Origin: a virus
Lineage: Duplodnaviria > Caudoviricetes
IMG/VR virus record: IMGVR_UViG_3300036861_000225
Coordinates: 1-54,260 of that record
Length of the DNA: 54,260 bases
Reading direction: 5' to 3' (one strand)
The position numbers were made by a program, and so were the translations under genes. Position 1 is the first letter of the stretch. Every line of letters starts with the position of its first letter. This document shows, piece after piece, positions 10,758 to 54,260 of this stretch. A model generated the notes under the pieces. It had not been told where the DNA came from. It saw only the letters and a program-made list of their open reading frames with translations, and made no database searches.

Positions 10758-10958
10758 ATGAAGACGAGCAACCCCTACGGCGCGAACTACCAAGTCAAGG
10801 TTCCGCCCGAGACCATCCAGGCCGAGCAATCGCAAGCCAAGGGCAAGGCGACCGCGCGCTACCCCCACAAGCCGCTGATGCCGGACCAGACCAACTCGAC
10901 CACTGGCAAGATGAAGGTTCGGGCCTACACCCCGGGCACTTCGCCCGCAGGTTCCTGA
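10758..10958 (+). CDS. Small protein after MCP (possible head-associated protein), 66 aa
   Basis: AAGGAG SD; followed by a terminator. Confidence 0.75.
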   Translation: MKTSNPYGANYQVKVPPETIQAEQSQAKGKATARYPHKPLMPDQTNSTTGKMKVRAYTPGTSPAGS

Positions 10959-10969
10959 TCGAGCAGAAG

Positions 10970-11000
10970 AGAACCCCGCTTCGGCGGGGTTCTTCGTTGT
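10970..11000 (+). terminator. Intrinsic terminator after the capsid genes
   Basis: AGAACCCCGC-TTCG-GCGGGGTTCT plus T-rich tail. Confidence 0.8.
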
Positions 11001-11034
11001 GGACGGTGAGCAAGTGCGCACATACAATCGTGCG
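11000..11034 (+). promoter_or_regulatory. Leaderless promoter restarting transcription after the terminator
   Basis: TGGACG-17-TACAAT, 6 nt, ATG 11035; GTGAGCAAGTGCGCAC at 11006..11021. Confidence 0.7.
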
Positions 11035-46152: not shown

Positions 46153-46503
46153 CTAGAAACCGGACGGCTGGGCGACGGCGCGCGTGAGCGCCATCAACCC
46201 CTCTTGAAAGTGCGTGCGCGCGATCGCGGCCCAGCGCTCGGGCTCGGCGCGGTTCAGGCGTGCTTTCTCGGCGTGTGCGCGCTGAAACGCTGTCGGCGGG
46301 TCGCCTTCCGCAACAGTTTCAGTTTCGCCTCGATCGATGATTTCTTTCTGCGCGTACAGGTTCATGCCGGTCCGGTGCCGGACCTTCGCGATCAGTGCCT
46401 CGATCTCGTGACCCTTGGCCTTGATCTCGTTCATCAGCGCTGCCTCGGCTTCATTCAGCTGGCGATAGCCCGTGATCTTGGGTTGGGTGAAGGTTTCCAT
46501 CAT
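46153..46503 (-). CDS. acb2: Anti-CBASS Acb2-like cyclic-oligonucleotide sponge
   Basis: KITGYRQL.E.E..LMN.IK..G and AEPERW.AIARTHFQ.GLMALTRAVAQP..F match the Acb2 signature. Confidence 0.85.
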   Translation of the reverse strand: MMETFTQPKITGYRQLNEAEAALMNEIKAKGHEIEALIAKVRHRTGMNLYAQKEIIDRGETETVAEGDPPTAFQRAHAEKARLNRAEPERWAAIARTHFQEGLMALTRAVAQPSGF

Positions 46504-48311: not shown

Positions 48312-48760
48312 GCCATCGACTCGTTGGCGTCAGCGGCGAGCTTGTCGAGCACGAGCACGAGCTCGGGGCGATCGGCCGCCTTCACGTCCTGGCCGGTCTT
48401 CACCAGTGTGCCGTACTTCTCGGCGAGCGTGGCGAAGAACGCCTTGATGCCGGTGCGGTTCGCAGCGCTGTTCGGGTTGCTCACGGCCACCATTTCGGCG
48501 ATGCGCTGACCGATCGGAGCGTAGGGCAGCTCAGCGGATTCGGTGGGCGGGGTCTCGGGCGCAGCGGGAGCCGGGGCCGGCACCGGGGCGGCAGAAGGCG
48601 GCGAAGCCGCAGGCTTGTCCGCCTTGGCAGGCTTTGGGGCCTTGGTCTCCGCGGGAGCCGGCGCGGTAGCGGCCGCCGCGGCCGCCGCGGTCTTGTCCCG
48701 GGTCAGGTACGCGATGGCTTCGTCCATGTTGGCGAAGGTGAGCTTGATCTCGACGGTCAT
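48308..48760 (-). CDS. Ala/Pro-linker protein typical upstream of DUF2800
   Basis: AAAGG SD; low-complexity linker plus small C-terminal domain. Confidence 0.75.
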   Translation of the reverse strand: MTVEIKLTFANMDEAIAYLTRDKTAAAAAAATAPAPAETKAPKPAKADKPAASPPSAAPVPAPAPAAPETPPTESAELPYAPIGQRIAEMVAVSNPNSAANRTGIKAFFATLAEKYGTLVKTGQDVKAADRPELVLVLDKLAADANESMA

Positions 48761-48975
48761 GTGTTGCCTTTCTGTTTGGCGGTGAGGAATTGGATGCGGC
48801 TGGTGAGGCTCGCGCGTTCCGAGCGCAGCCCGCCGATGTACCAGCGCAAGCAGCGCGCGTCTTCATGGCGAAGCTCAAGCATCGCGTCGGCGTAGTCGGT
48901 TTCGGTGTCCACGATTTCGTGGTCGACAAGGCGCAGCTTGAAGCGCGCGGCCCAGAGGCGCAGGGAGGTGATCAT
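48757..48975 (-). CDS. Hypothetical helical protein (MITSLRLW...)
   Basis: ATGA overlap with the downstream gene. Confidence 0.55.
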   Translation of the reverse strand: MITSLRLWAARFKLRLVDHEIVDTETDYADAMLELRHEDARCLRWYIGGLRSERASLTSRIQFLTAKQKGNT

Positions 48976-48982
48976 TGCGAAC

Positions 48983-49204
48983 TCAGCGAGCCAGCCGCAG
49001 CAGAGCATTGGCTGTAGCTGTCATTTCCATGTCTGTCCCACCCGATTCGCTGATCTCTTGCAGCGCGTCGGCCAAGCTGCGCAGCGTGTCAACGCGATTT
49101 CGCAGTAAGACGATCTTCGCGTCCGCAGCCGCTTTTGCCTTCACGGAATCGGACGATTGCCGGGCGTGACACGGCAGGGGATCGAGCAGGCTCATATCGG
49201 TCAT
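48983..49204 (-). CDS. Hypothetical protein, first gene of the leftward operon
   Basis: ATG just downstream of the promoter at 49267..49239. Confidence 0.55.
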   Translation of the reverse strand: MTDMSLLDPLPCHARQSSDSVKAKAAADAKIVLLRNRVDTLRSLADALQEISESGGTDMEMTATANALLRLAR

Positions 49205-49238
49205 ACGGTTCCCGGCTTTCGGCGTGTTGTGGGTCGGC

Positions 49239-49267
49239 AGACTAACTGCCGTATCAAATGCTGTCAA
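49239..49267 (-). promoter_or_regulatory. Strong leftward sigma70 promoter of the replication operon
   Basis: TTGACA-17 nt-TAGTCT on - strand. Confidence 0.8.
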
Positions 49268-49271
49268 GCGT

Positions 49272-49362
49272 TTTGGTTGGGCGCGCGGTTCGTGGTGCAC
49301 TAACCGGGAATCGACCACAGCATTAGCGAGGATCCATCACCGGAGCCACGCGCCCAACCAAA
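49272..49362. repeat. Perfect 14-bp inverted repeat enclosing about 63 nt
   Basis: TTTGGTTGGGCGCG (49272..49285) / CGCGCCCAACCAAA (49349..49362). Confidence 0.85.
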
Positions 49363-49368
49363 GACTCG

Positions 49369-49398
49369 AAAAAGAAGCCCGGGACCGAAGCCCCGGGC
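49369..49398 (-). terminator. Intrinsic terminator on - strand
   Basis: GCCCGGGGC-TTCG-GTCCCGGGC followed by TTCTTTTT. Confidence 0.85.
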
Positions 49399-49477
49399 CT
49401 TTGCGCTGGCAACTGCTTACCTGCGGCGTCGGGAACAAGGACAGGAGGAGGAGGAGGAGGGAGGGTTCACCCGACGC
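49369..49477 (-). ncRNA. Predicted ~109-nt sRNA with a (CCU)6 anti-Shine-Dalgarno loop
   Basis: Own promoter (49512..49484); 5' stem GCGUCGGG/CCCGACGC closing a CU-rich loop; middle hairpin; own terminator; no credible ORF. Confidence 0.7.
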
Positions 49478-49479
49478 GC

Positions 49480-49517
49480 TTGCAGTATGCACGGAGCAAG
49501 TGCTACAGTCAACGCCC
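49480..49517 (+). promoter_or_regulatory. Rightward leaderless promoter of cro, overlapping the sRNA promoter
   Basis: TTGCAG-18-TACAGT, 8 nt, ATG 49518; GAGC-AAGT-GCTA at 49494..49505. Confidence 0.65.
49484..49512 (-). promoter_or_regulatory. Leftward promoter of the sRNA
   Basis: TTGACT-17 nt-CATACT; predicted +1 near 49477 coincides with the first base of the stem. Confidence 0.7.
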
Positions 49518-49781
49518 ATGAACATGAAACTAAAGCGATTCATGCACGCCCTCACGGGCGAGCAACAGGAGCGGTTTGCGCGGCTTGCAAATACCTCGGT
49601 GGGCACGATCCGCCACTACGTGACCGGGCGCCGCGTGCCGTCGAGCTCGGCCGCGATCGCGATGGAGAAAGCTGCGGTTCGCATGAACGTGGACGGCGCG
49701 CCGGTTCTCGGGCGCCGCGACTTGTCGCCCGCGTGCAAGGGCTGCGAGTACGCCAAAGCATGCACGGAAAGGCTGGATTGA
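49518..49781 (+). CDS. Cro/YdaS-like HTH regulator with C-terminal CxxCxxxxxC
   Basis: QERFARLANTSVGTIRHYVTGRRVPS...AIAMEKA; ACKGCEYAKAC. Confidence 0.8.
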   Translation: MNMKLKRFMHALTGEQQERFARLANTSVGTIRHYVTGRRVPSSSAAIAMEKAAVRMNVDGAPVLGRRDLSPACKGCEYAKACTERLD

Positions 49782-49785
49782 AGCG

Positions 49786-50163
49786 ATGACAATGTACGAC
49801 TTGGCCCCCATGACCAACCCCCTCCTGAAGCCGTGCCCATTCTGCGGAGATGCAAACCCGCGTCTAGGCAAGATAATAGAAGGCGACATGCTTCTTCGCG
49901 GCTTCATCATCGAATGTAGCGATTGCACCGCCAACATGGACCGCTGCGAAACAGAGGAAGAAGCCGTCGAATACTGGAACTGCCGCGCCGTTGGTGGCAG
50001 TTCTGGCGCTGAAGGAGCACGCATGGCCAACCCCCTCCGAGAAGCCCTGGCCGAGGCACGCGACGCACTCTGCGAGCTTGCCACTGACAGCCGCCCATAC
50101 GTCGGGCTGTTAATTGACAGGATCGACTCTCTTCTCGCTTCTCCGGCGCCCCGCAGCACTTGA
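49786..50163 (+). CDS. Lar-like restriction alleviation zinc-finger protein
   Basis: LKPCPFCG...IECSDC.A...EEAVEYWN.R. Confidence 0.75.
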   Translation: MTMYDLAPMTNPLLKPCPFCGDANPRLGKIIEGDMLLRGFIIECSDCTANMDRCETEEEAVEYWNCRAVGGSSGAEGARMANPLREALAEARDALCELATDSRPYVGLLIDRIDSLLASPAPRST

Positions 50164-50189
50164 TACGCGGGTCCGCTCTGGTGTAACCT
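50160..50189 (+). promoter_or_regulatory. Candidate promoter before a structured leader of the nuclease/primase operon
   Basis: TTGATA-18-TAACCT; downstream inverted repeat CCGCCAACC/GGTTGGCGG. Confidence 0.5.
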
Positions 50190-50311
50190 GACGTTCCCGC
50201 CAACCCCAAGGATACCCCCTTTGATCTAGGCCGCCCCCGTCTTTCGGTTCGGGGCTCGGTTGGCGGCGATGCGCGCCTGTGACACACTGACACTCCTTCT
50301 CTGGAGACTGA

Positions 50312-50770
50312 ATGAGAGCCATCGAAACGCGCTACAAAGGGCGCCTGTTTCGCAGCCGACTGGAAGCCCGCTACGCGGTGCTTTTCGACGAGCTCGCGAT
50401 CGCGTGGGATTACGAGCCGGAAGGCTATGTTTTCGAGGATGGAACCCGGTATTTGCCGGACTTCTGGCTCAAGATCCCCGGCAAGCCAGGGCAGGGCTAT
50501 TGGGTCGAGGTCAAAGCCAGCGATCCCACGCCGGCGGAAGTGCACAAGCTTTCGCTGCTCGTGAGCAAGTCAGGGCATCAGGGCTGGTTCTTCACCGGCT
50601 CGCCGGGTGAAGGAAGCACACACTCACACGACGGCAAAGCCTGCGGGCCGCTGCGCTGGGCTGCGCCTATCGTGGCGTGCGCTACGCGGGATCTCAATGG
50701 CCGCTGGCGACAGGCCGCACACGAAGCGCTCGGCGCGCGGTTCGAGTTCGCAAAGAGGCGGCGTGCATGA
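50312..50770 (+). CDS. PD-(D/E)XK nuclease-family protein
   Basis: FRSRLEAR.A.LFD.L...W.YEPEG, YLPDF, WVEVK. Confidence 0.85.
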   Translation: MRAIETRYKGRLFRSRLEARYAVLFDELAIAWDYEPEGYVFEDGTRYLPDFWLKIPGKPGQGYWVEVKASDPTPAEVHKLSLLVSKSGHQGWFFTGSPGEGSTHSHDGKACGPLRWAAPIVACATRDLNGRWRQAAHEALGARFEFAKRRRA

Positions 50771-53097: not shown

Positions 53098-53270
53098 CGG
53101 CTAGCGGGGTACGACTAGCACGCCGACGCCCGGTAAATCGTGAGGTGCTAACCGTGCTAGCCGTCTTCTCTAACTTAAGGTATATATAATACCTGTGTGT
53201 AGTGTAGGGGCATTCTGGGGAAAGGTTGGGGGATAGGGCTAACAGGGCTATCAGGGCTATCAGGGCTAGC
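53098..53270. other. Candidate replication origin: AT-rich core with GCTA-based iterons
   Basis: 4 x AGGGCTA(A/T/G)C at 53235..53270; 2 x GTGCTA(A/G)CC at 53145..53162; TAAGGTATATATAATA. Confidence 0.6.
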
Positions 53271-53904: not shown

Positions 53905-54260
53905 TCAAAGCCGACCTTCGGTGCGCGCGGTCCCGAGAATGAACTCGCGATACGCGCGCCAGAAGCGCAGCGCTTGGCGGTCCATCTTCACGATTCGGGC
54001 ATCGTCGAACGTGGCCCAGTCAGCAAGCGAGTGGAACTCGCAGCCTATTTGCATGTGGGTGTCAAGGATCGTTACTTGCCACGCGAGCCCGCCGATCTGG
54101 ATCGGGGTTTTCTGCGCGTCGCCGGACACCTGCGCGTCGCCGGACACCTGCGCGCCGCCGAACACCCGCGCGTCGCCGGACACCTGCGCGCCGCCGGACA
54201 CCTGCGCGTCGCCGGACACCTGCGCGCCGCCGAACACCCGCGCGTCGCCGGACACCCACG
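53905..54260 (-). CDS. Hexapeptide-repeat protein, 3' part (joins 1..330)
   Basis: Repeats followed by W.VTI....MQIGCEFH....W C-terminal domain. Confidence 0.85.
   Translation of the reverse strand, partial: WVSGDARVFGGAQVSGDAQVSGGAQVSGDARVFGGAQVSGDAQVSGDAQKTPIQIGGLAWQVTILDTHMQIGCEFHSLADWATFDDARIVKMDRQALRFWRAYREFILGTARTEGRL

Follow-up and report, generated by a model that had tools for sequence, protein, structure and literature searches.

What occupies the position of a repressor gene in a phage in which nothing suggests lysogeny? The question is raised by a 315-bp gap that separates two divergent operons in IMG/VR record IMGVR_UViG_3300036861_000225, the genome of an uncultured tailed phage from soil, analyzed here over its whole length of 54,260 bp (the window). 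The record represents a complete virus genome with 64.8% G+C and terminal repeats. A leftward early/replication operon departs from one side of the gap, and from the other departs a short rightward operon whose first gene, called cro here, encodes a helix-turn-helix (HTH) protein of the Cro/YdaS type. A sequence-only reading of this locus had described it as a lambda-like divergent switch in which a small RNA (sRNA) takes the place of cI. We consider it likely, from sequence logic and four natural variants, that an sRNA gene exists at this position. We tentatively favor, as a plausible reading held just short of probable, a model in which its product is an early, trans-acting RNA of the anti-Shine-Dalgarno (anti-SD) type that is repressed together with cro by the Cro-like protein. 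A toggle between Cro and RNA, by contrast, appears improbable.

The four promoter hexamers named in the sequence-only reading were all confirmed by direct reading of the DNA, and its claim that two promoters occupy the same ~33 bp on opposite strands was borne out: both hexamer pairs interdigitate within 49480-49512, with each -10 element overlapping the other's -35 element by 2 to 3 bp. The leftward promoter points into a unit closed by an intrinsic terminator. The parts of this unit are given below, with reference to L002 (G001; 55,979 bp), the only other IMG/VR genome that shares the cassette.

49484..49512, minus strand: sRNA promoter, TTGACT (49512-49507), 17-nt spacer, CATACT (49489-49484), with a predicted start near 49477
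49480..49509, plus strand: putative cro promoter, TTGCAG (49480-49485), 18-nt spacer, TACAGT (49504-49509), a 7/12 match
49426..49477, minus strand: predicted sRNA stem-loop 1, an 8-bp stem (49470-49477 with 49426-49433) closing a 36-nt loop
49443..49465, minus strand: CU-rich tract CCCUCCCUCCUCCUCCUCCUCCU (as RNA), which dominates the 36-nt loop and differs in length among variants
49404..49425, minus strand: predicted sRNA stem-loop 2, 8 pairs, identical in sequence in L002
49366..49400, minus strand: predicted intrinsic terminator of the sRNA, an 11-bp GC-rich stem (49400-49375) with a UUCG loop, followed by the U-rich CUUCUUUUUC

In a sigma-70 scan of 48900-50400, the sRNA promoter was the sole site detected (1 versus 0.2 +/- 0.4 in shuffled sequences). 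A relaxed scan of both strands of the genome at a threshold of at least 9/12 returned 7 sites, 2 of which are the leftward promoters of the 315-bp gap. Transcription from the sRNA promoter would yield an RNA of about 110 nt, read from the minus strand between 49477 and the end of the U-tract near 49367 and folded into three elements: stem-loop 1, the 8-pair hairpin, and the terminator. The predicted minus-strand fold (-45.2 kcal/mol) has a z score of -2.35, with 1 of 200 shuffles folding as well, and the L002 homologue folds alike (z = -2.55). No conserved open reading frame (ORF) is present in the RNA, as a 10-nt length difference in L002 shifts the sole small frame, and the earlier description of the leftward unit as noncoding holds. 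Searches against Rfam gave nothing at gathering score across the window and chance-level matches only within 48500-50500 (the best, ylbH, on the plus strand at E = 0.14). No other purine/pyrimidine run in the genome is as long as the CU tract (23 nt), the next one measuring 16 nt; in mononucleotide shuffles, the longest such run averaged 16.0 nt and reached a maximum of 27 nt.

Read from the other strand, the same DNA would place up to about 8 GGA motifs in the loop of a hairpin, and GGA in loops is the recognition element of CsrA/RsmA proteins. It would nonetheless be very surprising if the functional RNA were the plus strand, a long cro leader whose GGA-repeat hairpin would serve as a sponge of the CsrA/RsmA type or enhance translation. 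The plus strand of this stretch has a fold z score of +0.79, with 155 of 200 shuffles folding as well; the G-U pairs of the minus strand, those of the terminator among them, become A-C mismatches; and the U-tract lies on the minus-strand side only. No plus-strand promoter matching at least 9/12 positions lies upstream, and in both clades compared here the cro start has a promoter immediately before it.

Conservation delimits the cassette. Exact loose ends in contig X5, together with BLAST against relative L004, set its limits at 49202 and 49782, about 580 bp flanked on both sides by mosaic early genes, and this conserved unit matches the span of 49204..49781 proposed earlier. BLAST against L002 aligned 49196-49786 at 79% identity, with the cro proteins 93% identical, while neither the first leftward gene nor anything past cro is related; leftward from 49202, L002 and X5 alike differ in sequence from the window. 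The X contigs are Logan contigs from four soil or rhizosphere DNA runs. In L002, a double change at 49429/49474 turns a U-A pair of stem 1 into C-G, one terminator pair goes from G-C to G-U (on the plus strand, a C-A mismatch), and the CU tract is 10 nt shorter but consists of pyrimidines only. Taken together, the two full sequences leave no cell unpaired (54 of 54, over 27 pairs); both sides of 1 pair have changed, and in 2 more a one-sided change has produced G-U. Contig X3 (record 16, covering 49364-49513) carries the same change of the stem 1 pair as L002 (T49429C with A49474G), along with G49426A, which creates a G-U wobble on the minus strand only. Contig X5 (record 27) has no base differences within 49367-49513, only gaps; the gap letters across the sRNA region number 9 in X5 and 15 in X3.

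Further copies of the sRNA were sought by exact-pattern scans of viral contigs and by protein-based scans of viral and metagenome contigs, and each returned only L002. A covariance model of the RNA (R1) found it in 1 of 4 relatives' records. Within the window the model recovered the locus itself, a hairpin at 346-367 (E = 0.016), and a weak match at 10906-11002 (E = 0.13). The hairpin at 346-367, on the minus strand downstream of a DUF932 gene, is a partial match to the model and is nearly identical to the sRNA terminator; the phage seems to have reused one terminator sequence.

The putative promoter that lies back-to-back with the sRNA promoter opens the rightward operon, and further leftward or palindromic features bear on how the cassette might be controlled. 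A terminator and a second leftward promoter (TTGACA-17-TAGTCT) had been reported farther left, and both are found there.

49518..49781, plus strand: Cro/YdaS-like HTH protein, 87 aa, first gene of the rightward operon, ATG at 49518
49205..49274, minus strand: PL region, -35 TTGACA (49267-49262), 17-nt spacer, -10 TAGTCT (49244-49239), a 9/12 match with a predicted start near 49232 and a 5' untranslated region (5' UTR) down to 49205
49489..49503, no strand assigned: dyad GCAC-N7-GTGC in the spacer common to both interdigitated promoters, a weak candidate operator
49235..49251, no strand assigned: perfect 6-5-6 dyad CGGCAG-ACTAA-CTGCCG over the PL -10 element, a candidate operator identical in L002

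Support for the cro promoter is positional and comparative. No Shine-Dalgarno sequence lies upstream of 49518, and only CAACGCCC stands between TACAGT and the cro ATG in the window, placing the putative transcript start at, or 1 to 2 nt before, the AUG of what would be a leaderless mRNA. The cro homologue of L006, one of three more distant relatives (L006, L007, and L008) whose cro homologue is 48% identical and whose exonuclease is 60 to 66% identical to those of the window, is preceded by TTGACA-18-TAGGAT-GCCCC-ATG, a 10/12 promoter that ends 5 nt before the ATG, again with no Shine-Dalgarno sequence. Because that promoter abuts the start codon, it supports a leaderless cro in the window as well. 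All four hexamers of the interdigitated promoters are unchanged in L002, and 4 positions of the common spacer differ. From known polymerase footprints, we infer that two RNA polymerases cannot sit on both promoters at once, and this geometry supports the earlier claim that the two are mutually exclusive.

The protein encoded by cro falls slightly below the Pfam threshold for HTH_3 (PF01381; 22.1 bits against a gathering cutoff of 23), while P0001, a homologue 93% identical to it, has a precomputed PF01381 match, and the protein itself matches phrog_35, annotated as a transcriptional repressor, at E = 1.9e-5. A collection of 5.8 billion proteins holds 6 homologues, at 63 to 93% identity, and tblastn with the cro protein gave one weak match, to Paraburkholderia phage IPK (E = 6e-3). 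The AlphaFold (AF2) model has a mean pLDDT of 84.1, and its best Foldseek match is YdaS (8c7k; TM 0.70, E = 0.17), followed by lambda-repressor-like and HigA-type domains. A sequence profile likewise gave the YdaS entries 8c7k and 8co2, at E = 0.07 and 0.14. Calling the protein Cro-like is therefore fair at the level of the predicted fold. YdaS, from the Escherichia coli O157:H7 cryptic prophage CP-933P, is a Cro analogue and the first gene of a rightward early operon, as is the HTH gene here; identity is about 20%, and the phage protein differs in having an extra C-x2-C-x5-C tail and no adjacent divergent repressor gene. This cysteine motif (residues 73-82, 49734-49763) is invariant in an alignment of 8 sequences, lies in a low-confidence region of the model, and may serve this Cro-like regulator as a metal or redox site.

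If the RNA is made, its features point to a regulator that acts on other transcripts. Its own promoter, a Rho-independent terminator, the lack of an ORF, and an unpaired C/U-rich seed are those of a trans-acting anti-SD-type sRNA, and sRNAs with CU-rich loops are an established regulatory type; for the present locus the evidence comes from sequence alone, in four variants. The cuckoo RNAs of Alphaproteobacteria (CcsR/RSs0680 and alpha-r14/NfeR1) have C- or CU-rich loops that pair with ribosome-binding sites and consist of 2 to 4 adjacent hairpins of 24 to 50 nt, each with CCUCCUCCC in a loop of 9 to 27 nt (PMC4615179). The phage RNA shares with them a GC-rich stem, a pyrimidine anti-SD-like loop, a terminator that follows, and compensatory variation in the stem beneath a loop that remains CU-rich. 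Membership in the family was nevertheless rejected: by the same description, the phage RNA has one CU hairpin only, the exact CCUCCUCCC is absent from the RNAs of both the window and L002, and the window hairpin (52 nt) and loop (36 nt) are oversized, with the L002 loop borderline at about 26 nt. The present RNA is also phage borne and has no Rfam match.

The mechanism that follows is inferred as regards transcription and its start points, action in trans, the messages targeted, and the DNA sites bound by the HTH protein. Transcription would start near 49477 from a good sigma-70 promoter and stop at the strong terminator at 49400-49366. The 8-bp stem would present the 36-nt loop, nearly all of it CU repeat and resembling the anti-SD end of 16S rRNA. 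Early in infection the RNA would act in trans, blocking the translation of messages, most likely those of the host, by pairing with their purine-rich ribosome-binding regions. As its promoter is interdigitated with the weak promoter of the leaderless cro, only one of the two could be occupied at a time. Once the HTH protein accumulated, it would probably bind the common spacer, and perhaps the dyad at the PL -10 element, and early transcription would be turned off.

Several results weigh against this reading. Duplexes of the loop with 60 start regions reached -27.6, -27.5, and -26.4 kcal/mol at best, about the first percentile of the genome background, and no target stood out; none of these start regions has a purine run of at least 9 nt matching the loop. 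Outside the locus, the longest perfect complementarity in the window is 12 nt, with 10-mer counts equal to shuffle expectation, and in the L002 genome it is 9 nt, both at chance level; several of the 8- to 9-nt matches in L002 are ordinary ribosome-binding sites. Most phage genes carry GGAG/GAGG-type ribosome-binding sites in their start regions, so an unspecific anti-SD RNA would strike the phage's own genes too. The comparison set consists of two full sequences (the window and L002) and two partial contigs (X3 and X5), and, with n = 2, covariation fails to reach significance, 255 of 500 shuffles scoring equally well. By consensus, the rightward cro promoter is weak and not significant alone. 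None of the sequencing runs listed as holding this DNA is an RNA run. Finally, the length-variable tract could be a slippage-prone DNA repeat with no sequence-specific role.

That last point also belongs to an alternative with no functional RNA at all, in which the (GGA)n/(CCU)n tract acts as DNA, be it H-DNA, a supercoil-sensitive element, or a protein site upstream of the cro promoter, and the hairpin and U-tract merely insulate the divergent units from each other. The tract is indeed a mirror-repeat polypurine run about 50 to 75 bp upstream of the predicted cro start, it varies in length as slippage-prone repeats do, and no transcript has been seen. We give this view a small chance: a 9/12 promoter aims into the tract and a terminator closes the unit, the 8-bp stem flanking the tract has been kept by compensatory change in two independent variants, and the asymmetry of the fold z scores and the G-U wobbles indicate a minus-strand RNA.

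Assuming an RNA is made, a role directed at the phage's own transcripts finds little footing. Attempts to pair it with the PL leader or the cro mRNA produced nothing but implausible, long-range duplexes. A P4-like or c4-like cis-targeting role is not supported, because complementarity in phage transcripts does not exceed chance. The most economical reading is still that the RNA pairs with a target in the host, or with ribosome-binding sites at low specificity. A bolder form of it would make the RNA a mimic of the 16S rRNA anti-SD tail, released in a burst at the onset of infection and soaking up the purine-rich ribosome-binding sites of the host, which would tilt translation toward leaderless and weak-SD phage messages, the leaderless cro first. 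We regard this form as unlikely. Were it true, an RNA-based shutoff of host translation would be coupled to its own off switch.

The layout of the region is what had suggested a switch. As in the lambdoid immunity region, a leftward unit ending in a terminator lies between the far-left early promoter and a promoter divergent from that of cro, and a Cro-type HTH gene comes first in the rightward operon; to this extent, the lambda-like topology claimed earlier (PL, a terminator-ended leftward unit, a promoter divergent from the cro promoter) stands. In contrast to lambdoid phages, the leftward unit here is a noncoding RNA gene, no HTH plus S24 repressor gene diverges from cro, operators repeated or triplicated between PR/PRM and PL are missing, and integrase, S24 repressor, and other signs of lysogeny are absent. 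The core promoters also interdigitate within 33 bp, whereas those of lambda PR and PRM lie about 80 bp apart. In lambda it is the cI mRNA from PRM that is leaderless; in this phage it would be cro that lacks a leader.

From this layout, the interdigitated promoters could be taken as a bistable Cro-versus-RNA toggle. The sRNA would then stand in for cI as an RNA immunity factor like those of P4 (CI RNA) or N15, and would keep up a carrier or pseudolysogenic state. The arrangement of PL, leftward unit, divergent promoter, and cro does mirror the lambdoid immunity region, the two promoters are by their geometry not co-occupiable, and no protein repressor besides the Cro-like HTH protein was detected. 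A precedent is offered by P4, which has RNA immunity factors (PMC4825925). The same source and a second one describe P4 CI RNA, c4 of P1/P7, sar of P22, and OOP of lambda as pairing with transcripts of their own phage (ant, cII, seqA/seqC), with c4 and sar blocking ribosome-binding sites (PMC4825925, PMC12197685). Like those RNAs, as these sources present them, the one proposed here is small, ends in a terminator, and lies in or beside a phage control region. Unlike them, it has no complementary site that we could find in its own phage, where early transcripts show no complementarity beyond chance of the kind formed by the seqA/seqC sites of P4, and the phages in question are all temperate.

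The candidate operators also speak for joint repression. A palindrome named earlier as an operator-like site, AGCA-AG-TGCT, is present at 49495-49504, but it is broken in L002. The dyad at 49489-49503, by comparison, becomes GCAT-N7-ATGC there through a double substitution. Four-base-pair dyads of the GCAC-N7-GTGC kind are not enriched in the genome (6 found versus 7.5 expected). The PL dyad at 49235-49251 is the sole perfect copy of its sequence in the genome, and its pattern is not enriched either; neither dyad is repeated, and the sites at the promoter spacer and at PL differ. Because the conserved dyad lies in the spacer that both promoters share, co-repression is expected rather than a flip, and a protein bound there would more likely silence both promoters than switch between them. 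Overlapping divergent promoters that are co-repressed are known from E. coli bioA/bioBFCD. The present locus resembles that case in having divergent promoters on one stretch of DNA that a single protein between them could close, and it differs in that one product would be an sRNA and the candidate operator is a weak 4-bp dyad.

Lifestyle points the same way. Six-frame searches of the window found 0 matches to Phage_integrase, 0 to Resolvase, and 0 to Peptidase_S24, and the only HTH_3-like match was the cro-like gene; the earlier statement that no CI or integrase gene is evident is thus correct for canonical types. Four relatives' records, two of them at least 99% complete, contain neither Phage_integrase nor Peptidase_S24 (resolvase was not searched there), so that 0 of the 5 records in the group has an integrase or an S24 peptidase. 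With one pattern, no prophage copies were found in 185,579 species genomes. Three matches covered only 15 to 17 C-terminal residues, and these genome-contig loci were rejected as relatives, the match being confined to the C-terminal Cys motif. Unrecognized repressor types among unassigned ORFs aside, this podophage looks virulent.

Comparison with relatives had been suggested as a way to see whether cI occurs at this spot. In L006, L007, and L008, a cro homologue is kept, but the locus contains neither cI nor any cI-like gene and no terminator-ended RNA. Their leftward promoter stands back-to-back with the cro promoter, not overlapping it, and leads straight into the left operon. The sRNA covariance model found nothing in the records of this clade, the 100%-complete G004 included. 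Because these relatives lack both the sRNA and cI, the sRNA is best described as an addition in one small clade and not a substitute for a lost cI, and the idea of an RNA standing in for the repressor is not borne out. Nor does anything tie the RNA to repression of lytic functions. With no canonical lysogeny genes and no complementarity beyond chance, we find the Cro-versus-RNA toggle and its carrier state improbable. In the relatives, as a separate matter, the DUF2800 exonuclease match of L007/L008 (6001-7786) spans 1,786 nt rather than some 1,310, with the reading frame broken after 203 aa; about 500 bp of inserted DNA, possibly an intron or a homing element, interrupts the gene.

The direct route from promoter to left operon in L006-L008 lends some weight to a different alternative, in which the RNA is a leader cut short by termination: transcription begun at the 49512 promoter would be meant to read through into the left operon under antitermination, and the 110-nt species would be a by-product. 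Contig X5 fits as well, since the tail of its terminator lies only about 10 bp from the PL -35 element and read-through would reach the operon. We doubt this explanation strongly. PL is itself a 9/12 promoter and, with its 5' UTR, the best-conserved stretch of the cassette (about 2 differences in about 70 nt versus L002, counted by eye), covered also by contigs X4 (record 22) and X5 (record 27). The terminator is strong, with its 11-bp GC stem and U-tract; no antiterminator gene was recognized; and in 2 of the 3 variants that span the junction (the window and L002, not X5), a hairpin cassette of roughly 90 to 100 nt lies between the terminator and the operon.

49275..49366, no strand assigned: 92-bp hairpin cassette with 20-nt arms (49272-49291 and 49343-49362), a variable indel between the sRNA terminator tail and PL

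This hairpin cassette folds on both strands, with z scores of -5.5 (minus) and -4.5 (plus). At the same site, L002 has unrelated sequence that likewise forms a long hairpin, and X5 lacks the cassette, with 49274 joined to 49367 and only TG between them. No U-tract follows it on either strand, and its arm sequence has no other copy in the genome. Its appearance is that of a palindromic indel element or of an insulator.

Returning to the sRNA as an early trans-acting regulator under joint control with cro, its meaning depends on the RNA being made. If it is, it would join the small number of sRNA genes with an anti-SD-type loop that are known from apparently virulent phages. To judge from the literature searched, in which no phage sRNA of such layout was found, it would be the first to have its promoter interleaved with the one serving a Cro-like regulator of the same phage. 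It would also indicate that the slot of lambda's repressor protein can hold an RNA gene without lysogeny. The cassette is compact, at 580 bp, and can be tested in reporters without the phage's own host.

The locus sits in a genome with a podophage-like structural block on the plus strand, in which PHROG and Pfam identified a terminase, T7-type portal/adaptor, major head protein, and internal virion and ejection proteins. By the same databases, the leftward early/replication operon, from 49204 down to about 35000, encodes a DUF2800 PD-(D/E)XK exonuclease, a Gp2.5/Enc34-type single-stranded DNA-binding protein, an Acb2/Tad1-hairpin protein, a family A polymerase, and a helicase, and the short rightward operon encodes the HTH protein, a Lar-like protein, a nuclease-like protein, and an AEP-primase/VapE helicase. 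The leftward operon begins just outside the conserved cassette.

48983..49204, minus strand: first gene of the leftward early operon, 73 aa

Its product has no family match in Pfam or PHROG. No tRNA genes were found in the window, and blastn gave no match among GenBank phages. Searches with the primase and the capsid reached distant phages only: APSE (about 41%), Acidovorax ACF1 (48% over part of the protein), and, for the capsid, Rhizobium RHph_TM3_14A (42.5%), in which neither the cro family nor the exonuclease was found.

Four further features of the genome were noted. In the early left operon, the gene at 46153-46503 (minus strand) encodes a 116-aa protein that matches the Acb2/Tad1 hairpin domain (Pfam, E = 1.9e-15) and may be a sponge that takes up cyclic-nucleotide signals used by host defense systems. 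Directly after cro, at 49786-50163 (plus strand), lies the gene for the Lar-like restriction-alleviation protein (Pfam, E = 3.8e-7; PHROG 599), a position at which L002 and X5 differ. Just downstream of the primase/helicase gene, an AT-rich patch at about 53165-53200 is followed by four tandem 9-bp units of AGGGCTANC at about 53232-53270, and the region 53165-53270 looks like an origin with iterons. A gene for a YdcK-type beta-solenoid repeat protein, at 53905-54255 on the minus strand, extends into the terminal repeat of the record.

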